The notes beneath the pieces are model-generated. The model worked only from the letters and a program-made list of their open reading frames with translations. It was not told the DNA's origin and did not search any database. Below, one piece after another: positions 2,075-60,838 of a stretch of 64,000 nucleotides of DNA. Location: positions 558,001 to 622,000 of the forward strand of contig CAKKNE010000001.1 in NCBI GenBank assembly GCA_918797485.1, written 5' to 3'. Within the stretch, counting starts at the first letter, position 1. Each line of letters starts with the position of its first letter. Made by a program: the position numbers and the translations under genes. The DNA comes from Pelagomonas calceolata. Lineage: Eukaryota.

Positions 2075-3241
2075 ATGGCGCGAGCTCGCCACGGCACGCC
2101 GCGGGGCCGGCCGCCCTTGCTGTCGCCCGAACTTCGGCAACAAGGCTGGTCCATGCAGTCAGAAGAAGGTGAATGGTACTACGTGGGCCGCGTGATAACG
2201 CGGGACCGGCCCAGCCGCGGCTGGCCCGCCGCGCAGCTGCTAGGGCGTGACCAAGCTGACGAATTGTACAAGGAGGCCGTCGCGGTCGCGGTCGCGAAAT
2301 GCGCGAAGGACACGGCGGGCCAGACATGCTACATCTGTTATGGCGAGGGCGATGAAGATGGTCTCGTGCGTGGGTGCGCGTGCCGCGGGGAGTCTGGCAT
2401 CGCGCACATTTCGTGCCTGGCGGAGCAGGCGAGACGTTTAGTCGTGCATGCCGAGGCCGAGGCAAGGGATTTGGATGACGATGCGTTAGATGCGGCGTGG
2501 AAGAGGTGGTGCATTTGTGGCCTGTGCGAGCAAGACTACCACGGGGTCGTATCGTGTGCACTCGGGTGGGCGTGCTGGAAGACGTACCTGGGGCGGCGGG
2601 AGGAGGACGAGGCTCGGAATTTCGCGATGACGGTGCTCGGGAATGGTTTATACGCTGCAAATTACTACGAGGACGCGTTGTCCGTGCAAAAGGCCGAGTT
2701 GTCTATGCGGCAGCGCCTCGGCGATGCAGAAGACAACATTCTCGCCGTGCAGACCAATCTTGCGAACACGTATCGATCACTCGGACGGCTCGAGGAAGCT
2801 CTACGGCTGCGACAAGAGGTATACTCCCGATATTTGAAGCTCAATGGGAAAGAACATGGATCAACCCTCTTGGCAACCAACAACTACGCGGTGTCCCTTA
2901 ATCTTCTAGAGCGCTTCGAAGAAGCCAGGTCACTGCTGCGCCGAACGATTTCCGTGGCGCGGCGCGTTCTCGGAGAGAGTCATGACCTCACGCTCAATAT
3001 GAGGAAGACTTACGCGATAGCGCTCTACTGCGACAAAGGCGCCACGCTCGACGATCTCCGCGAGAGTGTGACGACGCTCGAGGATGCGAAACGGATCGCG
3101 CGGCGCGTACTCGGGGGCGAGCACCCGACTACAACGGAAATTGAGTGGCACCTGCAAGAAGCGCTCCGCGCCCACGAGACGTCAGACGACGAAACCCTGG
3201 ACGTCTCGGCGCAGGAGGACGACGCGGACGACATCGAGTAA
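2075..3241 (+). CDS. RING-CH/RINGv zinc finger followed by TPR-like (kinesin light chain type) helical repeats; member of a multicopy family
   Basis: CYIC...GCACRGESGIAHISCL...W..CGLC; repeats of the type NLANTYRSLGRLEEAL and RRVLGGEHP; start codon uncertain (2075 or 2153). Confidence 0.8.
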   Translation: MARARHGTPRGRPPLLSPELRQQGWSMQSEEGEWYYVGRVITRDRPSRGWPAAQLLGRDQADELYKEAVAVAVAKCAKDTAGQTCYICYGEGDEDGLVRGCACRGESGIAHISCLAEQARRLVVHAEAEARDLDDDALDAAWKRWCICGLCEQDYHGVVSCALGWACWKTYLGRREEDEARNFAMTVLGNGLYAANYYEDALSVQKAELSMRQRLGDAEDNILAVQTNLANTYRSLGRLEEALRLRQEVYSRYLKLNGKEHGSTLLATNNYAVSLNLLERFEEARSLLRRTISVARRVLGESHDLTLNMRKTYAIALYCDKGATLDDLRESVTTLEDAKRIARRVLGGEHPTTTEIEWHLQEALRAHETSDDETLDVSAQEDDADDIE

Positions 3242-13136: not shown

Positions 13137-13506
13137 GGCTGTCTTCTCCTTTTTTTACACAGCAAAGGTTCCAGGTAGCTAGGCGGCCTAGCTCTAAGCA
13201 AAGCAAAGGTTGTGCTTAGATGCTTTGTAGAGGGCTGCCGAACAGGGGGCTGCCGAAAATCGATGCCGTTCCAAGGTACAGTGTGCGCAACGTGCAGATG
13301 GCTGCCCTGGCTTGCTGGCGCTCACCGCTTTTGCATTCGCATCGCATTGATTGTGCTGGACTTCAACACAGTCCCAGAAGACGAAGAACCAGGCCCTCTG
13401 GAAACGGACTAGAGCCGCGCGGCGCAAGGCCAAGGCCGCGCAGTTCAATTCACAGAAAGTCGAGGACTCCAACGTCACACCGCCGCCGGCGCCGTCCCCA
13501 GCGAAG

Positions 13507-17876: not shown

Positions 17877-17938
17877 CGGCCTGCTTGCTAGTGTCTTACA
17901 GGCCGCTAGCGCGCGGCCTGCTTGCTAGTGTCTTACAG
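17877..17938. promoter_or_regulatory. Duplicated 25-bp unit containing CTAGTGTCTTAC in a divergent intergenic region
   Basis: CGGCCTGCTTGCTAGTGTCTTACAG occurs at 17877 and 17914. Confidence 0.55.
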
Positions 17939-18200
17939 CACGCTAGGTCCGCAAAGCTGCGCCTTTGCAGTTTTGGGGCCGTGCTGGGTTAGGATCCGGC
18001 GCAAGCCATTTTCGGCATTCGTTTTGGGCTCCTTTTGACCTGCGCAGTGTAAGCGACACGTATCGGCGTTCGTGGAGCAACACCTCCCAGCAGCGCCGTC
18101 GAAGCAGCGCGGCGCGCCGACGTCAAGAAATAAGGCAAGGCAGCGCGCAGCATCGAAATTAAAACACAGCGCAGCGCGCAGCACCAGTACCTAGAAAAAT

Positions 18201-21251: not shown

Positions 21252-23123
21252 ATGGCCGACACCATGGACATCCCAAGGGAAGAGGTCCTGTTAGGACGCT
21301 GCTGCGAGTGCGGCATCGGCCTCGATCCGCGGACGCACCCGACGATGACGTGCGTCAATTGCCTGCAGGCGCGCGCGGACATCGCCGAGGGCGTCTGCCC
21401 GAATGGGCAATTATTCAAATGTAGACGGTGTCAACGGTACTGTGGGGGTGCTACTACCTATGTGGCCTGCGAGCCGGAATCCAGGGAACTCATGGCCATA
21501 TGCCTGAAGCGCGTGAGAGGCTTGAAAAGAGTTAGGGTGGCGGACGCGGCCTGGATCTGGACGGAACCCCACTCCATGAGACTGAAAGTTAGATTGACCA
21601 TCCAGAAGGAGGTAGCACCAGGAGCTATACTACAGAAGCCTTTAGATTGCGAGTTTGTGGTCCGGAATCAGCAGTGCACGGACTGCCGCCAGCAGTTCGA
21701 GAACTTCGCCTGGACGGCGGCGGTGCAGGTGCGGCAGCGCGTCAGCCACAAGCGGACCTTCTTCTACCTCGAGCAGGCGATTCTCAAGAAGAACGCGCAG
21801 GCGGCTGCGGTCAAGATCGAACAGTTCCGCGACGGGTTGGACTTCTTCTTCCGCCAGCGTAATGATGCGGTGCGCTTCGTGCAGTTCCTGAAGGATTGTG
21901 TCCCGTGCCGCGTCAAGGAGACGAAAAAACTGGTTTCCGCTGGTGCGATCTCGGCGTCCCGCGGTGCTGCGGCGCCTTCACGCCATCGACGCGACTCGTG
22001 TTCATCAGACGAGGTCGTGGGTGGTTTCTTTTTCGAGTTTGAGGCCATTCGGACCGCGTCGCGAGACCGCGATGCCCCGCGCAGATCCAAAGTCGAACCT
22101 GTTCAACCACCAGTACACGTCTCTGGTTACCTTGGCCGAGGCCTGCAAGGAGGACCTTGTGGTCGTTGACTCTAGAACAGCGTCTCGGCTCGGTTCGTTG
22201 CCGCGCTTGCTATTGGTGCGGTCCGTGAACGCGGTGGTCCGGTTAGTAGATCCGCAGACGGGTCGCATCGCGGAATTGCACACGGAGGGCTACTTCAAGG
22301 CGCCGCCGTCCGTTCGTTTCGGTGTCCTTTGTTCTTCTCATGCGGGGCACCGAGCACGCCGTCGGTGGTCGATGGCTTGCCGGTCGCCGCCTGCTCGACG
22401 CCGCGGTGCGACTACACTCCACCAGCACGCCATCGCCGCGACTCACCACAAATCACACAGGTCGCCCTCTCCGCGTCGCAGCTCGAGCCCTTCGTCGTGC
22501 TAGACGTCGAACGAGTAGAAACGCCGAAAGTAACACAACCGCCGGAGAAGAAGGCGTCTTCCAAAAAACGAAGAAGGCAGGAGGCGCCGACTGGTCCTCG
22601 AGTGATGAAGGGATTTCTGGCAGACGTGACGCTCGCGCGGGAGCGCGATTTAGGTGTCAACGACGACCAGATCACGTGTAGGACGCATCTCGGTGCGTTG
22701 CTGCGGTGCGGCGACCGCGTGCTGGGCTACGACGTGCGAGCCGCGAACTTAGCGTCGTCCGTCGACGGTCTCGGCGGAAATGAACCAGATGTGGTCTTAG
22801 TGAGGAAATGTAGAAAACAGGACCCCGACGGTCCCACACCGAAGCGCCACTGGAAATTAGATACGATGGAAGCGGATGAAGTTCACGATGAGGCGGACCA
22901 TACGGACGACCGGGAAATCTTCCTGTCGCAGCTCGAGACGGACCGCGAGATGCGGTCGCGCGTGAACCTGTATAAAGATGGAGATCACGTAGACGACGAC
23001 GACGAAGAAGGTGTTAGGTTGGAGGAGCTGCTGGACGAGATGAAGGTCGAGGACGAGGTCGAGGAGTGTGCCGAGGACTCGGTGCTGGAAGGAGTGGTGG
23101 TGCGGGGGTCGGGTAAGTCGTAG
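21252..23123 (+). CDS. NMD3: 60S ribosomal export adaptor NMD3; introns 21943-22084 and 22312-22460
   Basis: CCECG, CVNC, ESRELMAICLK, WIWTEPHSMRLKV, AAVQVRQRVSHKRTFFYLEQ, GLDFFF, RTHLGALL, PDVVLVRK. Confidence 0.95.
21943..22084 (+). other. Spliceosomal intron (GTGCGA...CGCAG)
   Basis: Removal gives KKLVSA-D-PKSNLFNHQYT, matching the conserved NMD3 segment. Confidence 0.88.
22312..22460 (+). other. Spliceosomal intron (GTTCGT...CACACAG)
   Basis: Removal gives YFKAPPS|VALSASQLEPFVVLDVE in frame. Confidence 0.85.
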
Positions 23124-30695: not shown

Positions 30696-32819
30696 CTAAA
30701 TGCCCGTCGTCGCGCGCTCCGACGCCGTCGCGACGACGACGTCCCTCTTCAGCCCGAGCCGCGCGTCGAATTTCTCGTCCGTATACGGCGCCGAGGTCAG
30801 GACGTAGGCCGGGTCGACGCCGGCCGCGAGACACGCCTCGACGCGCGGGCGGTAGCGCCGCTCGAGGCTGTAGCTCGGGATGGCGGGAATTCTGATGATG
30901 TGGTCGCGAAGTTCTGATGAAGAGAGGCCCGTCGCCCGTAGCAAGTAGTCGAGCTTCGGCTTTAAATTATCATCGACGCTGAGGTACAATAAAGGCGGAC
31001 TCGCCACGACGACCCTCGCCAACTGCTTCTCATCCAAACCGAGGCGCCGCTCCAGCCAGGCGCAGTTCGACTCCATGCGCTCTATCCTTAACCCCAGCAG
31101 CGTCGGATACGCCACGACCATCTTCCTCAGTCCCGCGTCGCCCAAGTCGAGCCGCCTCTGGAGCCAGGCGAGGGTCGGCGCGACGTTGTCCACAACACTT
31201 AAACCCAGCAGGGGCGGGAGCGCCAGGACCATCCTCTTCAGCCCCGCGTCGCTGAGTTCGAGGCGCGTCCGTAACCACCCGAGCGTCGGCTTCATGTTGT
31301 CGTCGACGCTGTAGCCCAGCAGCGACTGGGACGTTAGAATCATCTTCTTGAGTTGCGCATCGTCCAGGTCGAGGCGCGTCTGGAGCCAGTCGAGCTTCGG
31401 CGCCAGGTTGTCCTCGACGCGGTAGCCCAGCAGAGCCGGAAACGGCACCACCACCTTCTTCAGCTGCGCCGCGTCCAGGTCGAGGCGTCGCTGGAGCCAG
31501 TCGAGCTTCGGCTCCATGGTGTCCTCGACGCTGTACCCCAGCAGTGGCGGAAGCCTCAGAACCATCTTCCTCAACTGCGCCGCGTCCAGACCGAGGCGGC
31601 GCTGGAGCCAGTCGAGCGTCGGCGCCAGGGTCTCCTCGACGCCTAGATTCAGCAACGACGGATGCGTCACAACCATCCTCTTCAGTTGCCCCGCGTCCAG
31701 CTCGAGGCGCGTCTGGAACCAATCCAGCTTCGGCGCGACGGCAGCTCTCGCTCCCACGAGCAGATGCCGCGCCACCCTTTCCAGCTCCGCCTTAGACAAG
31801 GCGAGCCGCGTCCGTAGCAGGTCGTCCACTTGTGCAGGCTTCGACAGAGTGCCGAACGCCCGGCGTGGTGCGGCGACCGCCGCGTTTTGTCGGGGCCTCG
31901 AAACATCGGTGCTAAACGTCCGTCGCGGCGGCGCCGCGACCGGCGGCCGCGCCGCGTCTCGCTCCGCCTCCGCGGCCTCCCGTCGGAGCCGCGCAGCCTC
32001 TGCAAACAGCGACGCAGCGTCATCGCCGCCGGGGGCCGCGCGATCGTCGCCGCCCCAGAACGCCTCCTCGTCGGCGCGTCTTCTCGACTCAAAGTCCGCG
32101 AGCGCCACGCGCTCCTCCCGCGAGAGCTCGGGATGAAACACGTCGAAGAAGAGCACGACGCGCTCGCGCTCCGAGTCGTTGAAGGCCGCGTGCTCGAAGG
32201 ACGTCTGCAGCGGCGGCGCGAGCGCGCCGCGGGCCCACTCTATTGGAGACGCTTCCCTGGAAGTCGTGAAGAAGAGGCGGCAGTCCTCGGGCACGGCGAC
32301 CCCCAGGTGGCACGTCAACAAGAAGTTCACCATGTCCGAGTGGGGCGGCACGTGCGACTGCGGTCCTTGCCGCGCGAAGAAGGCGAGGCGCGTCGCGCCG
32401 ACGGGGTCTTCACCTGAAACGTGCTCGAGCGCTTTGATCGTTTCCGGGAATTGTTTACGAGCGCCCGGCATAATTTCTCCTTGTTTCGCGATGTCCAAAC
32501 CGGCGTAGTCGTCTCCATAATCTCCGCCAAAATAAGGTGCAAGTTCCACAGTGTTTGACGCGGCGACGTACTCGGCGGCGATAATATCAGCGTGTGCTTC
32601 TAACTCATCGGCCCACGCCGGCCGCGGCCACGCCGGGCGCTCGCTCAGGCCCGGGTAGTCGCCGCGGGCCCGCAACGTCTGGCCCCGCGCGGCGTAGGGC
32701 TCGTCGTCGGATTCGGCCCATTTACGGACGAAGGCCTCGAAGCGCTCCGTCGGTGCTGCTGCGAGTAATGATGTTGCGGTCTTCTGCCGCGCGGCGCGCC
32801 AGGCGGCGGCCGCGGCCAT
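30696..32819 (-). CDS. Aspartyl/asparaginyl beta-hydroxylase-like 2OG dioxygenase domain fused to an mTERF repeat array
   Basis: HVPPHSD, LTCHLG, SFEHAAFN, RVVLFFDVFHPEL; then about 36-aa repeats PKLDWLQ.RLDLD.AQL.KMV...P.LLGYSVE, ending YSLERRYRPR. Confidence 0.82.
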   Translation of the reverse strand: MAAAAAWRAARQKTATSLLAAAPTERFEAFVRKWAESDDEPYAARGQTLRARGDYPGLSERPAWPRPAWADELEAHADIIAAEYVAASNTVELAPYFGGDYGDDYAGLDIAKQGEIMPGARKQFPETIKALEHVSGEDPVGATRLAFFARQGPQSHVPPHSDMVNFLLTCHLGVAVPEDCRLFFTTSREASPIEWARGALAPPLQTSFEHAAFNDSERERVVLFFDVFHPELSREERVALADFESRRRADEEAFWGGDDRAAPGGDDAASLFAEAARLRREAAEAERDAARPPVAAPPRRTFSTDVSRPRQNAAVAAPRRAFGTLSKPAQVDDLLRTRLALSKAELERVARHLLVGARAAVAPKLDWFQTRLELDAGQLKRMVVTHPSLLNLGVEETLAPTLDWLQRRLGLDAAQLRKMVLRLPPLLGYSVEDTMEPKLDWLQRRLDLDAAQLKKVVVPFPALLGYRVEDNLAPKLDWLQTRLDLDDAQLKKMILTSQSLLGYSVDDNMKPTLGWLRTRLELSDAGLKRMVLALPPLLGLSVVDNVAPTLAWLQRRLDLGDAGLRKMVVAYPTLLGLRIERMESNCAWLERRLGLDEKQLARVVVASPPLLYLSVDDNLKPKLDYLLRATGLSSSELRDHIIRIPAIPSYSLERRYRPRVEACLAAGVDPAYVLTSAPYTDEKFDARLGLKRDVVVATASERATTGI

Positions 32820-41250: not shown

Positions 41251-42087
41251 CTAGATCGTCCCCAAATTCTGCTGGAAGCGCCACGTCGTCGTCCAGTCGA
41301 TGTAGTCGCAATGGGCGTGCGACTCGTGCTCGACGCGGCCCGCGGCCACGTAAAAGGTATACGTCTCCATCGCGTCGCACGAGAACTCCTTGTCGAGATC
41401 CGCATCAAAATCCCACGTCCGCGTCTGGAACACGAGCCGCGCGGGCCGGCCTTCCATCAAGAGAGCTCTCGGCTGCGCGAACGCGATGAAGTGGCGGCAC
41501 GCGTGGGACCGCGGCTGGTCGGCACAGTTTCTAAAAGCGTCGAGCACGCGCTTCCTATTAAGGACAGGATTCAACTCGTGGTAGTGCCAGTTCCTCCCGC
41601 GCACGCCGTCCGTGTCTTCCGTGACCTGCCTAGAATATCCGGTTTCCGTCTCATAGGTGGTAAACATGCGGAACGCATTTAACGGATAAGCTTCATACCC
41701 AAAGATCCAGTTCCACGAGAAGGCGGCCATGAGCAGGATGCAGAACCGTGCACCTTTCTTCGATGAGGCCGTGCGTCTCTCTCGTAGGAAGCCTTGATCC
41801 TCCTTCTCTCTTAACTCTTTCGTGTTCTCCTCGTAGGCGAGCATGGCCGCCCTTCGCTTGGACGCACCCAGTAGTGGTGGAAAGAGCCCCCAGGGGCCGT
41901 CTCTATCTTGCGCATGGCAGACGGCATGAGCTAAAGCCCACAACGGGATGAACGTCAATAAGTCGGCAAATAAAATATGTTGTAGGATAAAAATGCCAAT
42001 GTGCATCTGCCACATGAGAAATGGAAAGATCATCTTCGACGGGCGCCAGAAGGGCACCAAACCCATCGCCAGCTCGCCGAAGAGGCC
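41251..42087 (-). pseudogene. 5'-truncated membrane protein (HTTM-like C-terminal half)
   Basis: TM segments WQMHIGIFILQHILF and WIFGYEAYPLNAFRMFT; the upstream part of the ORF is the antisense of a TPR-family fragment. Confidence 0.45.
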
Positions 42088-42369
42088 ATCGAAGAAGCCA
42101 AGCCCCTGCTGCGCAGAACGATGCCCATGACGCGACGCGTTATTGGCGAGAATCATGAGGGTACGCTCAAGATACGGTGGACTTACGCGGAGACGCTCTA
42201 CAAAGACCCGGACGCCACGCTCGACGATCTCCGTGAAGCCATGACGACGCTCGAGGAGACGGCACCGATCTCGCGGCGCGTGCTCGGCAGCGCGCACCCG
42301 GTCACGGAAGGGATAGAGGACGAATTGCGACACGCGCTAGCAGCCCTCCGCGCCCGCGAGAGCTCGTAG
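42088..42369 (+). pseudogene. 3' fragment of the RING-CH/TPR family (paralog of 2075-3241)
   Basis: EEAKPLLRRT...ATLDDLREAMTTLEE...RRVLGSAHP matches EEARSLLRRT...ATLDDLRESVTTLED...RRVLGGEHP. Confidence 0.8.
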
Positions 42370-42384
42370 GAATCTAAAGACAAA

Positions 42385-44349
42385 TTACAACAACAAAGAA
42401 GACGACTGCGCCAGTAGCCGCGGCCGCATCGCCTCCACCGTTCCCGCGAACGCCAGCAGCCGCGCGGCGTAGAACTCCGCAGGCACCGTCGCCGCGAGGG
42501 CCTTGGTATCGGGATGAACGAATGCCGTGCGAACAAACGTAGGCTTCGCGCCCGGCGGCGGCGCCGCGACGACGTCGAGGCGCTGCGCGCGGATCTGCGC
42601 AAAGCTGAAATGCACCCGCTCGTCCGTCGGGTCCGCGGGGCAGACGACCGTTCGCCCGCCAGCGCCTGGCGCGATCAGGATCGGCCACGACGCGTCGACG
42701 GGGCGGAAGCCCAGGCTGGTCAGCGCCCGCGCGACGACGGGCTTCGTCTGCGGTCTAGCACGTACATCTGCATCAACTAAAACACCAAGCGCCGCCAGAG
42801 TCCCCAACGCGAGCTTGGCCAGCCCGCGCCCCCGCTGCTCCTCGGCGACCTCGACGCCGCGCACGTGGATTGCCAACTCGTCGACCTCGCAGAGAATGCG
42901 CGCCGCCTTCGCGCCCTTCTTCCTATCATTGCCAAGGATCAGCGAGAACCGCTCGTGGCCGTCGAGTTTATCCCGCAGCAGCGCCACGTCGTAACCCTCA
43001 ACGGTCCCGACGAGGCTCCGGCGCGGCGGTCGCGACGGCCCCGCGTCGGCCGCCAGCGACCGCGCGATGGCGGCGCCCTCCGTCAGCAGCGTGCTGTGCG
43101 CGGCGGCCAGCGCGAGAATGGTTAAGAATCGCGGCACGAGGGGCAGCGTCGCGGTCATCATTTGGTCGTGCTGCGAAAGCTGCGTTTCGAGTCGACCGCG
43201 CCGCGCGAGGTCGGCGTAGGCCGTTTCGAGGAGGTGGGGCTCGTGGTGCTTGTACGACAGCACAGCGGCCGCGCTGGCGGCGTCGTCGAGCACTTGTGGC
43301 GCGGCGAGGCGTGGTGCCGGTGAGAGAGCTACCATTTTGCACGGCGCGACGGCGACGGTGACGTCGGTTTCCTGGGCCGCGCGGAGGGCCGCGAGGGGGA
43401 CGCCGGCGCGCTTGCAGAATTGTTCGTCTGTTGTCGTCGCGCTATTGAGGACTATGGCAGGATCAGCCCCGGCGGCGCGGCAAACTTCGAGTCGGGGCCG
43501 GTATCGTGTTTTGAGGCTGTAGCCCAGACGAGCTGGCGAGGATACTATTGAAGCGCGCACTTCGGATGGAGAGAGACCAAGCTCTTCCTCGAAGAAGCCC
43601 AGCTTTGGCTGTATGTTGGCCTCGACGCTGTAGCTCAGCAGTGCCGGTAGCCGTAGCACCATCATCCTCAGCCCCGCGTCGTCCAGGTGGAAGCGCGTCT
43701 GCAACCACTGAAGCTTCGGCTCCATGTTGTCCTCGACACTTTGATACACCAGCGACGGATTCGTCATAACCATCTTCCTCAGCTGCTCGTCATCCAAGTC
43801 GAGGCGCGTCTGCAACCAATCGAGCTTCGGCTCCATGTTGTCCTCGACGCTGTAGCTCAGCAGTTGTTGTTTTTTCACAACCAGCTTCTTCAGCTGCGCC
43901 GCGTCCAGCTCGAGGCGCGTCTGTAGCCACTCGAGCTTTGGCGCCAGGTTGTCCTCGATACTGCAGCCCAGCAGTTGCGGAAACTTCATCACCATCTTCC
44001 TCAACTGCGCGTCGCCCAGGTCGAGGCGCGTCTGCAGCCAGTCGAGCTTTGGCGCCATGCTGTTGTAGCCCAGTAGTGCTGGGAAACGCATTACCACTTT
44101 CTTCAGCTCCGAGTCGCTCAGCCCAAGCTCGGACTGCAGCCAGCCAAGCCTTTCCTCGGCTTGCGCGCGAGTCAAGCTTTTCGCGCTGCTCGGAATCAGC
44201 TTTCCCTCGACCTTGCTGGCCTCTGCCGCCGTGCAGCCCAAGGCCTGGACGCAGTAATCGTAAGCAGCCCCTCTACACGCCACAGCACCTGATGGCCTGG
44301 AACCCGGCGCCACGAGCGCGGCGGCGCCCGCCACGAGCAATAACATCAT
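42385..44349 (-). CDS. mTERF repeat protein with presequence, continuous in frame with a downstream GNAT-like module (possible second gene from 43335)
   Basis: MMLLLVAGAAAL signal; about 36-aa mTERF repeats; GYSLKTRYRPRL; later VRGVEVAEEQRGRGLA. Confidence 0.8.
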   Translation of the reverse strand: MMLLLVAGAAALVAPGSRPSGAVACRGAAYDYCVQALGCTAAEASKVEGKLIPSSAKSLTRAQAEERLGWLQSELGLSDSELKKVVMRFPALLGYNSMAPKLDWLQTRLDLGDAQLRKMVMKFPQLLGCSIEDNLAPKLEWLQTRLELDAAQLKKLVVKKQQLLSYSVEDNMEPKLDWLQTRLDLDDEQLRKMVMTNPSLVYQSVEDNMEPKLQWLQTRFHLDDAGLRMMVLRLPALLSYSVEANIQPKLGFFEEELGLSPSEVRASIVSSPARLGYSLKTRYRPRLEVCRAAGADPAIVLNSATTTDEQFCKRAGVPLAALRAAQETDVTVAVAPCKMVALSPAPRLAAPQVLDDAASAAAVLSYKHHEPHLLETAYADLARRGRLETQLSQHDQMMTATLPLVPRFLTILALAAAHSTLLTEGAAIARSLAADAGPSRPPRRSLVGTVEGYDVALLRDKLDGHERFSLILGNDRKKGAKAARILCEVDELAIHVRGVEVAEEQRGRGLAKLALGTLAALGVLVDADVRARPQTKPVVARALTSLGFRPVDASWPILIAPGAGGRTVVCPADPTDERVHFSFAQIRAQRLDVVAAPPPGAKPTFVRTAFVHPDTKALAATVPAEFYAARLLAFAGTVEAMRPRLLAQSSSLLL

Positions 44350-44707
44350 CGCTGCGCGTTGGCGATGGCCTGCTCGGCCGCCTTCAATTCGCGCGGAGGC
44401 TCGGAGCAAGGTCTCCTCAGTGCATAAGTCTGCACCAGACCAAAGTCTGCATGCAGCAGGCAGCTGCACTGTAGTCTGTCTATGACCAATAAAATCAATC
44501 AATGAGCTTTCGCAGCTGCACTATGAAGACTTTGTGGCACGTTCGCAGGCTGGGCTAGCGTTGACACACTAGGATTACACTAAGAGCGCTGAACTCTATA
44601 CGTAAAGACCCCCAGAAGCCATCGCTGCCGAGGTTTACGACACGTGGGGACCCCTTTATTAAGCGCCCGACGCAACCCCATCGTCGCCGCGTCGGCAGAG
44701 CTGTGAG

Positions 44708-46108
44708 ATGCCCTCCCCCCGCGCCAGAGGCAGCGCCTCGTCGTCGCCGCGTGCGTCGTCGGGGACGCCCCGCGGCAACGGCAGCCCCCGCGAGGACGAC
44801 GCCGCCTGGGCCGAGGCCTGCGCGCGGCCGCCGCTCTCGCCGCGCACGCAATTGATTCGGGCGGGCGCCGTCGCCGTGAGCCTGTGCGTCCTGGTGATGC
44901 TGCGGCCGGAGCTAGCTTTAGCCTACCGCAAACTCACGCGCTTGCCGGGCCAGAACGACAATCTGAAGCGGTTCCTGCCGCCGTCGCGGCCTGTGTGGAA
45001 ATCAAATTTTACGGCACGTTCGTGCTGAATCGTCGCGTCTCCCTGCACGCCATCGACGCGACGCCTGCTCGATGGCGTGGCGATGCCGGTTCGTCACCGC
45101 TCGACGGAGCCAGCACGGTCACGTCATCGCCGAGAAATGACTTATGCACCCGACACACTGGTTGATTTCCACACAGGTCGCGGCGCCGCGCCGCCGAGCG
45201 CCAGCTCCGCAACCGTTTGGAAAGGGCGGGCCACGCCGACGCGCGCGACGCGACGATAGACCCGGACTGGGCCTGGTTCGCGCCCGACTCCGCCTTAAGC
45301 TTAGATGCGGCGTCGGCGGCTGTGTGGAAATCAACCAGTGCGTCGGGTGCACCCGACAATTCTTCACGAAGTCATTTCGCGGCGATGATGCGGTCGTGCT
45401 GGACCCATCGAGCGGCGAGGAACCGGCATCGCCACGCCATCGAGCAGGCGTCGCGTCGATGGCGTGGAGGACGACGCGATGATTCAGCACGAACGCGCCG
45501 TAAAATTTTGATTTCCACACAGGTCGGCGGCCGCCGCCGCCGCCGTCGAGCACGGCGCGGCCCCCGGGCGGAGGGACTTGGACGTGGAGGCTTCTTATGT
45601 GGGTTGCTTCGGCTCCGAGACGTGGTTCGAAAATAGGACCTACGTCGGGGGGCAACGAGGCGCGAGGTACCGCCTGGCCGTCCGCGACGCCGCGAAGCAA
45701 AAGAAGCGCTATTTTGCGTGCGCGCGGCGCGACGCGGACGGCCACGGCTTCTTGTTTGATGATCTAGTCCCGGACGCGCGAAATGCGTTCCCGTCGGGCG
45801 ACCTCGTCGCCGGCGGCTGCGAGCGCGCGTGCGCCGACGAAGGCGCGAAGCTCTGCGGCTGCGCCGACGAGGCGTGCACGGGCGCCATGGGCGACGACCA
45901 GCCGCACCACCGGCGGTGGGCCGTCTACCGCATGCCCGATCCTCCCTCCACAAACCGTGGGCTGCCCGCGCCCGACGAGGAGGAGTGTGGGGACGCCTGG
46001 ACGCGCGTGGATGAGGCTCAAGCGGAGGCGGAGGTCTTTGAGGGGGCGGAGGCGACGGTGTTCACTCATTTAGGTTTCGCGGACGGCGGCGGGGGTTCGC
46101 CGGAGTAA
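44708..46108 (+). CDS. Type II membrane protein with WSC-like Cys-rich domain; interrupted by two introners
   Basis: Exons 44708-44982, 45177-45311 and 45523-46108 join in frame; YVGCF...CERAC...LCGC...WAVYR. Confidence 0.75.
44991..45176 (-). mobile_element. Introner element copy A (186 bp, reverse orientation); TSD GTCGCGGC; predicted intron 44983-45176
   Basis: TIRs CTGTGTGGAAATCAA/TTGATTTCCACACAG; TSD at 44983-44990 and 45177-45184. Confidence 0.93.
45320..45522 (+). mobile_element. Introner element copy B (203 bp); TSD GTCGGCGG; predicted intron 45312-45522
   Basis: Same TIRs; TSD at 45312-45319 and 45523-45530. Confidence 0.95.
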
Positions 46109-46122
46109 CTGGAACAACAGAA

Positions 46123-46623
46123 TTAAAACCCAACCGTGACCGCAGCGACGGCCACGACGGCTCGATCCGCGGCGTCGCCTAACGCTTCCACGACGCGACC
46201 GGACTGGAAGTCCAGGCCGCCCGCACGCACCTCCACGGGGAGCATCCGACCGTACGGAAACATGGCGCGGATGTCTTCGACGGACACGGAGTCCACGAGG
46301 TCTTCCGGCACTCCGATCTCGACCTTTAGCAACATATCTCCGCGACCGCGCTCGTATCCGCGGTCGCGCAGGAGCGTCTCCATATACGGCAACGCGTTAA
46401 ACTCGATGGCCTGGCGGCATGCACGCGTGGCGGCCTTGCTCGCACCAGCCGTGCCATGCTGGTCGCAGCCCATCCCCGCTTGCACGAACACGATCTCGTT
46501 AAGGGTTGTCTCTGGAGGCGCCCATTGTGCGCCCAAGCCTGCGGCTTTCCATTCCTGCGATGTAGCACCCGTCGTGCTTGCGCGTCGTGAGCGCGCGACA
46601 AGCCGTGCAGCGCGATTCAGCAT
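46123..46623 (-). CDS. Lin0512-family protein
   Basis: VFVQAGMGCDQHG...KAATRACRQAIEFNALP...FPYG...GGL...AVAAVTVGF. Confidence 0.85.
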   Translation of the reverse strand: MLNRAARLVARSRRASTTGATSQEWKAAGLGAQWAPPETTLNEIVFVQAGMGCDQHGTAGASKAATRACRQAIEFNALPYMETLLRDRGYERGRGDMLLKVEIGVPEDLVDSVSVEDIRAMFPYGRMLPVEVRAGGLDFQSGRVVEALGDAADRAVVAVAAVTVGF

Positions 46624-48824: not shown

Positions 48825-48958
48825 TGTTGTGTGGATTGTATGTAATTAACAATTGATCTTAGTACTGAGGGGATCCTGAAGGGACATAAAAATGAAAGGC
48901 GTCGGTCGTGGTGGCTACGCAGTCTAGCTCTAAGCAAAGCAAAGGGAAAAAAACGGAA

Positions 48959-58294: not shown

Positions 58295-60838
58295 ATGGGC
58301 ATCAACAACTTCCACAAGTGGGTCGACGCGACGTTTGGGTGCACGCAGAAGGCGTCAAGGGTCGACTGCGAGGACCTGTTGGTGGATATGAATTCGCTCG
58401 TCCACGGCGCCGCCCGCAAAGCGAACACGCCGGCGCAAGCCCACAAGCTCATCCTCAAGCGACTCGAAGGGCTGCTCGACGAGCGGCGGCCGGGCCCCAC
58501 GGTGCGCGCGTCGCAAACGCTCGCTCTCTTCTCCGACGGACCCGCTCCTCTGGCCAAGCTCACGACGCAACGGGCGCGGCGGCTCCGCGGCCGGTCCGCA
58601 GCGCGAGCAGACGGCTACGACGAAGACGTCGTGGACGAGGCCAAGTTCACGACGCTGATGATCAGCCCCGGCACGGCGTTTTCGAGGGCGCTCGCCGAGC
58701 GCCTCGACGCCTGGGCGGCGAAGCGCCTCGCGAAGGGCCGCGGCTTCCGGAGGGTCGTCCTCAGCGACGCGTCCGTCGCCGGCGAGGGCGAATTGAAGGC
58801 CTTCGAGTACGCGGACACGTACGGAGACCGCGACGTCGTCGTGTACGGTGGTGATGCCGACTTAGTGGCCATGGCGCTTTCGCGGTGCCCTGTGTGGAAA
58901 TCAACCAGTGCGTCGGGTGCACCCGAGAATTCTTCACTAAGTCATTTCTCGGCGATGACGCGGCCGTCCTGGCTCGGTCGAGCGGAGAAGAGCCGGCATC
59001 GCCACGCCATCGAGCAGGCATCGCGTCGACGGCGTGGAGGACGACGCGATGATTCAGCACGAACGCGCCGTAAGATTTTGATTTCCACACAGGCGGTGCC
59101 AGCGACGAGGACGCTTGCGCATCCTGGACGAGAACGGGCGGCTCATAGACGTGAAGACTCTAGCGAAGCGCGTCGCGCCGGCGCACCCCTTAGACCTGGC
59201 CGTCTTGGCCATCGCCGGCGGCGGCAACGACTACCTGCCCGGGCTGCAACATTCCGCACCACACCTCTGGAGTGCGTTGAAAAAGAGTAAGGCGGGGCCG
59301 CTCTGGCGCGACGGCGCGCTGGACCGCGCGGCCTTCGCGGCTGTCCTAAAGGCGTTTGGCGAGTCGCGCGAAGGGAAGGGCGAGAGCGGCGATCTGCGGG
59401 AAGCGGCGCTCGGGCGGCGGCGCGCCGACGGCGCGCCGGCAGCTCCGCGGACCGTCATCACCACGTTAGAGCCAAGGCGGGCGGACCTCTGTAACGTCCG
59501 CGTGTTGCCGCCGCGGGACTTCGGTGACGTGGCGCGCGGCGCGGAGACTCTCACGTACCGCGTCCGCTGGCGGCGCGCCAACGGCGGGGCGTGGTGCGCG
59601 GCGCAAGCTTACGAGACCGGCGCGCCGCTCGACGCCGTTCCGCTCGAGACAATCAAACACGGCGTGCCCATCCGCGTGCCCGCCGGCGGCGGCGAGGTCG
59701 AGGTCTGCGCCTGTGTGGAAATCAACCAGTGCGTCGGGTGCACCCGACAATTCTTCACTAAGTCATTTCTCGGCGATGACGCGGCCGCTGAACGCGCCGT
59801 AAAATTTTGATTTCCACACAGGTCTGCGCGAGCGCGAAGAACAGTAAAGGTTGGGGCGCATCGCGTACTCAGAAGCAGCGGCGCGCGAAAAGCTTCTGTA
59901 TGGCGCTGGGCCCCGACGAACACGATGCGCACACGGCCGCGGAAATGAAGCGCCAGCCGGCCGCGGCCGAAACGCCGGCGAACGACGACGCTCCGGCGCC
60001 CGCGATCCCGGCTCCCATGAAGCGCGCCTGGGACGCGGCAGCTTGGTTGGACCAGCTCGAGTGGACCCTGGCCATGTACGTGCGCGGCCGTTGCGTGGAC
60101 TGGCGCCTGCTCTACGCGTACCCCGGCAGGCCGTCCGTCGGGGACCTCGTGCGGGCCTGCGGCGCGCCCGCCCCGAAGTGCGTACCGCGGCCGCCGATCT
60201 CGCCCGTCGCTGCGCTAGCTTGTTTGATTCCAGGGCGGTCCGCTGCGGCCTTATTACCGACGAAGGCGCGATTGCTCCTCGACGACGGCTCGCCCATCGC
60301 CAGTCTTTGGTGGGGGGCGAACGACGCCATCGACGTCGACGCTATTGAAGCCGCCGTCGACGAAGCGGTGCCTCCGGCTTGGGGTACGCCCGTGATCGTC
60401 GACGCCAAGGGCCGCACCGCTGTTAGGCTTCTTGCCGACGGCGCCGCAGCGTATCCGCCTCTGCCCCGAGCGCGTGGCGGCGGCGGCCGGGCGCCGCCGC
60501 CGCGCGGACGGGCACCACCGCCGCGCGGCCACCCTGTTCCGCCGCCGCGCGGTCCGCACGCCGCCGCGCCGTCGTATTCTGCGCCGCCCGTTCTCCATGC
60601 CATCGTTCCGCCACCGCCCGCTCACTTTACCGTCGTTCCACCGCCCGCCCCCTCGCTCGCAAAACGCCCGCCGCCTCGACATGGCCCTCCGCCGCCGCCG
60701 CCTCAACCCAAGCGCGGACGAGGCGGCAAGGGCCGCGGTCGAGGCCGTGGACGCGGCGACGCCGCGGCGGCGTATCGGCCGACGAGTAGCGGCGGCGGGG
60801 CGCGCGTGCCGCGGTCTCGCGGACGCGGCCGTTCGTAG
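58295..60838 (+). CDS. XRN-family 5'-3' exoribonuclease-like protein; interrupted by two introners
   Basis: MGINNFHKW, LVDMNSLVH, DGPAPLAKL..QRARR, ISPGT.F, GEGELK, YGGDADL, GNDYLP, WTLAMY...DW..LY; exons join in frame after introner removal. Confidence 0.9.
58890..59092 (+). mobile_element. Introner element copy C (203 bp); TSD GCGGTGCC; predicted intron 58882 (GC) or 58885 (GT) to 59092
   Basis: Same TIRs; TSD at 58882-58889 and 59093-59100. Confidence 0.95.
59711..59821 (+). mobile_element. Introner element copy D (111 bp, internally deleted); TSD GTCTGCGC; predicted intron 59703-59821
   Basis: Same TIRs; TSD at 59703-59710 and 59822-59829. Confidence 0.95.

Follow-up and report, generated by a model that had tools for sequence, protein, structure and literature searches.

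Inverted copies of one short introner, both likely spliced as introns, within a single gene of Pelagomonas calceolata

Can one and the same mobile element become an intron irrespective of the orientation in which it inserts? The question is raised by a plus-strand gene of Pelagomonas calceolata in which two copies of a short element lie in opposite orientations on either side of a small exon. We studied this gene in a window of 64 kb (the whole stretch of DNA analyzed, to which all positions refer), which holds four copies of the element: A, B, C and D (Table 1). These are non-coding, 111-203 bp in length and 91-98% identical. Each is bounded by a perfect 15-bp terminal inverted repeat (TIR), CTGTGTGGAAATCAA ... 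TTGATTTCCACACAG, which ends in CACACAG, and is directly flanked by a perfect 8-bp target-site duplication (TSD) that is separate for each copy. Read on the host strand from its first base, the TSD begins with GT in A, B and D and with GC in C, and the element end reads CAG. We consider it very probable that A and B are inverted copies of one TIR element, which likely arrived by independent DNA-transposase insertions, and that both are likely spliced as ordinary introns. The phenomenon as such is already known: the locus is an instance of a published behavior, in a genome in which introners have been noted before.

The inverted relationship of the two copies, as proposed in the first-pass annotation, is borne out by alignment: reverse-complemented A and B share 169 identities, with 17 mismatches and 17 gap positions (score 260; about 91% alike), versus a score of -8 for the same-strand alignment. 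The extent given there for the pair, 44983..45530, coincides exactly with the outer edges of the TSDs. B is 92% identical to C and 96% identical to D, which lie 13-14 kb away, and 91% identical to A. Copies A and D bear internal deletions: D is short of 92 bp, and A, in comparison with B, of 16 bp near its 3' end; the TIRs and clean junctions are kept in both. The ends of elements A and B are separated by 143 bp, a spacing near the size of a nucleosome core, in what is a single case. A structure scan of the window for 8-bp direct repeats around 12-bp TIRs, with up to two mismatches allowed, returned five matches, of which four are copies A-D at zero mismatches and one is a GC-rich match with two mismatches. 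As 50 shuffles gave a mean of 0.06 matches (maximum 1), we rejected a chance repeat. Many further copies are present elsewhere: thousands of RNA reads run from the element into unlike flanks. The TSDs of A (44983-44990) and D (59703-59710) begin with GY on both strands, which is the case in two of the four copies; for these two, a donor and an acceptor are predicted for a transcript of either strand, and they may reflect a symmetric target preference.

Table 1. Coordinates of the host gene, its predicted introns and the four element copies in the window
Feature	Coordinates	Strand	Evidence or remark
Exon 1, coding part	44708-44982	+	Uncharacterized 331-aa gene; stranded RNA reads
Left TSD of A, GTCGCGGC (right TSD 45177-45184); first GT = predicted 5' splice site	44983-44990	+	Sequence
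Intron A (left TSD plus element A), 194 nt, phase 2, GT..CAG	44983-45176	+	Junction as in P0013 and homologues
Introner copy A, 186 bp	44991-45176	-	Opposite orientation to B, C and D; TIRs at 44991-45005 and 45162-45176
3' TIR of A, with acceptor CAG and putative branch motif TTGAT (A at 45165, -12)	45162-45176	+	Branch use inferred
Exon 2, 135 bp, 45 codons, phase 2-2; starts with right TSD of A	45177-45311	+	Stranded reads, depth 1-8
Left TSD of B, GTCGGCGG (right TSD 45523-45530); first GT = predicted 5' splice site	45312-45319	+	Sequence
Intron B, 211 nt, GT..CAG, phase 2	45312-45522	+	3 raw reads join exon 2 to exon 3 (run X22)
Introner copy B, 203 bp	45320-45522	+	TIRs 45320-45334 and 45508-45522
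Candidate branch A of B	45511	+	TTGAT in TIR
Exon 3, coding part to TAA; starts with right TSD of B	45523-46108	+	Region conserved 40-60% in distant homologues
Xrn1 N-terminal-domain gene, holding C and D (both in B orientation)	58295-60838	+	Domain label from search
Copy C, 203 bp, B orientation	58890-59092	+	TSD GCGGTGCC, GC donor; inside Xrn1 N-terminal-domain gene
Copy D, 111 bp, B orientation	59711-59821	+	TSD GTCTGCGC; same Xrn1 N-terminal-domain gene as C

When both predicted introns are cut out, an ORF of 331 aa is obtained, running from 44708 to 46108; the arrangement put forward in the first-pass annotation, namely two copies in one plus-strand gene with a 135-bp exon between them and a restored frame, thus stands. 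Retention of A would end the ORF within a few codons of entering the element, retention of B would shift the frame ahead of the conserved C-terminal region, and skipping of exon 2 would keep the frame (286 aa). The spliced model is identical at 331/331 aa to the Pelagomonas calceolata protein CAH0364008.1 (P0013), the sequence of which is on record both at NCBI, as a gene model, and in the mmetsp transcript source. The nearest cluster of the host protein has 101 members, and our comparison covers the 15 that are listed: none of the other 14 is identical to P0013, and the full-length ones among them differ by 1-4%. Ten of the 15 span both junctions and one more spans that of A only; the predicted junction residues are found in all 11 of these, and the other four are fragments outside the junctions. 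Neither exon skipping nor intron retention was seen among the 11 junction-spanning listed members. Exon 3 used as a query returned 12 proteins of 106-340 aa, and five of five host-family proteins tried gave no match to Pfam families. In the distant homologues P0010-P0012, the conserved C-terminal region follows an apparent oligosaccharyltransferase subunit tail, and P0011 bears an oligosaccharyltransferase subunit name from its source; this context may be a hint at the role of the domain.

The history of the two sites can be read from metagenome loci that encode a relative of the host protein. There are nine of these, and six cover both insertion sites. Elements A and B are absent from all six, and the TIR is absent from all nine. 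The six element-free loci are collinear with the spliced model: their coding sequence is without an indel, and the sites lie 135 bp apart. Hence, both insertions are recent and entered an intronless gene, and removal of the element together with one TSD restores the ancestral sequence. The donor at site A merits separate mention. Its G occupies the silent third position of a proline codon, where this allele has G and the six empty loci all have C; accordingly, GY at site A is missing from each of the six, and GT at site B is present in three of them. As a null insertion has no reason to sit at a donor site, GY at A favors the splicing of A. Here a synonymous third-position base decides whether a donor is present at the site, which is a direct link from silent variation to intron gain.

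RNA reads were drawn from four stranded polyA runs of one sample. The first-pass annotation had made its proposal depend on expression of the host gene, and plus-strand transcription is seen in all four runs: nearly all reads over the exons share one direction, consistent with a plus-strand transcript, and the neighbor beyond 46147 has reads in the opposite direction. Over 44500-46300, the reads are swamped by those of other element copies, and host-gene junctions are absent among the joints listed for that stretch (15 listed, 93 more). In the narrow stretch 45160-45336, three reads of run X22 break off from exon 2 at the TSD of B and match exon 3 exactly from there on; in principle, these may derive from an allele without B. 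No A junction reads are among the joints listed for this narrow stretch, in which the depth at the left edge of exon 2 is 1-2 and the threshold three reads, and in run X21 neither the A nor the B junction is among the joints listed for it. The contigs of runs X17 and X3, in the rows listed, do not reach exon 2 and say nothing on either junction. Stranded reads matching the element, mostly from other loci, run in both directions, indicating that both element orientations are transcribed; 58-62% of them are B-type (two depth bins), a figure that reflects the expression levels of unspliced RNA and should not be read as a copy count.

Splicing of A is likely, on the basis of protein identity with an annotated and a transcript-derived sequence, coupled with the frame logic. 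The opposing view holds that A is spliced hardly or not at all, so that the allele is null and the recorded full-length proteins come from element-free alleles or from gene prediction. It draws on the missing A junction among the joints listed, on the NCBI record being a gene model and on empty alleles being the rule in the wild loci (six of six). Owing to such empty-site alleles, full-length proteins from the wild are weak evidence of splicing, and wild transcripts alone are not proof. However, the transcript-sourced record matches the protein of this very allele at every residue, from which other full-length cluster members depart by 1-4%, all three exons are intact and transcribed, and the GY that the six empty loci lack at site A is as expected if only spliceable insertions survive. 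We therefore consider a largely unspliced A improbable. It is almost inconceivable that the arrangement of A, exon and B arose from one local fold-back or inverted duplication rather than from two insertions: A and B do constitute a long inverted repeat with 143 bp between its arms, but each has a distinct 8-bp TSD of its own, B is at least as near C and D as it is to A, and the intervening exon is ancestral and single-copy.

The inverted arrangement has a further consequence, in that the pre-mRNA is predicted to pair A with B around exon 2. In the predicted fold of 44983-45522 (-405.5 kcal/mol), A and B form 173 pairs with each other and A forms none with itself; the three parts folded alone reach -83.3, -53.7 and -95.0 kcal/mol. 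In mammals, inverted Alu pairs flank circularized or skipped exons. The present case is like these in that an exon is flanked on either side by long inverted repeats, with a predicted pairing in the pre-mRNA; it is unlike them in that the repeats are whole introns including the splice signals, and in that no skipped or circular product was seen. That pairing of this kind loops out the 135-nt exon, with an exon-skipped mRNA or a circular RNA as the main product, is in our estimate highly improbable. The predicted A-B duplex is indeed far more stable than its parts, and a skipped product would stay in frame; yet exon 2 is skipped in none of the ten listed proteins that span both junctions, the 12 matches of 106-340 aa include no 286-aa representative, and the depth of exon 2 is no lower than that of the 3' half of exon 1. 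A back-splice joint is likewise missing among the joints listed, which has little power given a depth of 1-8 and polyA libraries that miss circles. A more general model strikes us as unlikely too: the 15-bp TIR would be a full 3' splice cassette, and head-to-head pairs of introners would zip into a duplex of ~170 bp, giving rise to skipped or circular RNA. Were it true, introners would create alternative splicing and circRNAs in algae, as inverted Alu pairs do in mammals.

If, as we favor, A and B are independent insertions that are both spliced as ordinary introns, the following mechanism would account for them. A transposase encoded elsewhere, making 8-bp duplications, would move the element; the donor would be co-opted from the left TSD and the acceptor carried by the TIR at either end, and the spliceosome would use both. 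The TIR is symmetric, each end reading TTGATTTCCACACAG when it is 3', and either orientation thereby offers an acceptor, in keeping with the earlier suggestion that CACACAG is supplied by either end. Insertions into coding sequence would survive when the target begins with GY, such that the limit on tolerance would be GY at the target start and not orientation. A doubled number of tolerated insertions would then follow logically.

Where the branch point lies bears on how much the element itself would need to be adapted. In all eight copy/orientation cases, YTRAY is matched just once over the last 70 nt, by the TTGAT of the TIR, whose A lies at -12; YTRAY is a consensus that may not be the pelagophyte one, and a match to it is present in 18% of shuffled 40-nt stretches. 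The looser NTNAY is matched at internal positions of the last 70 nt in seven of the eight cases; examples are ATGAC (-37 in A) and ATGAT (-41 in B and C). The first-pass annotation had envisaged a usable branch point on each strand. In that event both introns would be spliced with an internal branch point of their own per orientation, and the element body would be adapted on both strands. We regard this as possible but doubtful. Besides the looser internal candidates, the position -12 speaks for it, being close to the acceptor and covered by the predicted TIR stem: TIR-TIR pairing is predicted with a probability of 0.6-1.0 per pair, and, unless unwound, would mask both the acceptor and the putative branch site. 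On the other side, the distance of the internal candidates is not constant (-37 in A versus -53 in the full-length copies in that orientation), the region of the B-type candidate is deleted in D, and the only strict match falls in the TIR throughout.

A branch adenosine inside the TIR, at the A of TTGAT, is the placement we favor over internal sites, at a probability that we would put a little below even. Its appeal lies in the constant TIR match, the shifting positions of the internal matches, and the deletions that D and A have undergone. With the branch A and the acceptor both in the TIR, the latter would be a complete, symmetric 3' splice cassette, and separate branch points for the two strands may be unnecessary. 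Two-way splicing would then need no adaptation of the body, which would help explain why TIR elements often become introners. Full-text literature searches, with the 2016 primary paper outside their reach, brought up no work on where introners have their branch points or on introner pairs in inverted arrangement, although such work may exist. The locus is a compact test case, as it presents both orientations in one host context, for the branch site and for the relative splicing of the two orientations.

Comparable systems are described in the accessible text of several earlier reports. Aureococcus introners make introns in either orientation (bioRxiv 2020.10.14.339549; PMC10228655), and according to the latter, insertion in both orientations was reported by Huff et al. 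2016. A class of introners that brings its own 3' splice site and borrows the 5' one from the TSD is described in bioRxiv 2022.06.06.494994, and constant DRs and TIRs of Aureococcus IEs in PMC7789003. As so described, the introners of Aureococcus anophagefferens share with A and B a short non-autonomous TIR element, an 8-nt TSD starting with G, one splice site that is carried and another that comes from the TSD, and introns formed either way; this is a different species, and the likeness is one of described architecture. In Polarella glacialis, the introner-like classes 6, 8 and 10 have an 8-nt TSD (GHN6) and make introns in either orientation, biased to one (bioRxiv 2020.10.14.339549). The host there is a dinoflagellate that also has GA donors, and the resemblance is again by description only. 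For P. calceolata itself, Guerin et al. 2022 (PMC9481584) reported 956 putative IEs with GT/GC donors, an AG acceptor and conserved TIRs, and intron lengths that peak near 210 bp; introns B and C, at 211 nt, compare with this peak in the same species. The text and text supplements of PMC9481584 that were searched make no mention of introner orientation; Figure S3b and Supplementary Data 3, outside this scope, may bear on it. The TIR strings had no matches in the same searched supplement text, and the likeness to the P. calceolata IEs is by description. On orientation, the text available from PMC11282704, PMC12130899 and bioRxiv 2024.10.30.620910 adds nothing.

A search of viral contigs for an autonomous partner with the TIR of the element gave 53 matches, all of them single 15-mers; the longest alignment to the element is 29 nt, and we took them as chance. 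In prokaryote genomes, a search that used the TIR plus further element sequence gave one match (L063:1464-1523), at the end of a contig of 64% GC in a bacterial metagenome bin; this element fragment is probably algal contamination of the bin. We also rejected reading the window as prokaryotic DNA.

Several other features of the window touch on the element. In the TSD of copy C, GC at base 1 and GT at base 4 are both possible in-frame donors, 3 nt apart. The NCBI model, P0057, is one residue longer at C, as the GT donor would give; the eight other homologues spanning this site match the GC cut or the empty allele. A plus-strand gene at 21264-23100, which from its CCxCG start we take to be NMD3-like, has apparent frame-shifting introns near 21944-22084 and 22310-22460. 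These carry a 17-nt motif of the element body, and the second ends in CACACAG; they are without a clean TSD or TIR and may be decayed introners in the A orientation. The internal element motif, at up to two mismatches, occurs at 12 places in the window on both strands, several of them outside the TIR-bounded copies (sites include 1880, 12400, 21226, 26557, 39654, 53267 and 63318), and 53256-53294 matches B over 40 nt at 90%. Such stray sites are possibly relics of older insertions.

The window also holds repeats of other kinds. Two minus-strand genes, at 31057-31800 and 43487-44119, consist of 111-bp tandem repeats encoding 37-aa units and presumably resemble mTERF-like repeat proteins. A 220-nt direct repeat with 76% identity (2908-3127 and 42081-42300, 39 kb apart) is probably paralogous coding sequence. 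In lower-GC DNA, there are an intergenic 36-nt repeat with 89% identity (13174-13209 and 48910-48945) and a 33-nt tandem pair with 94% identity (17877-17946).
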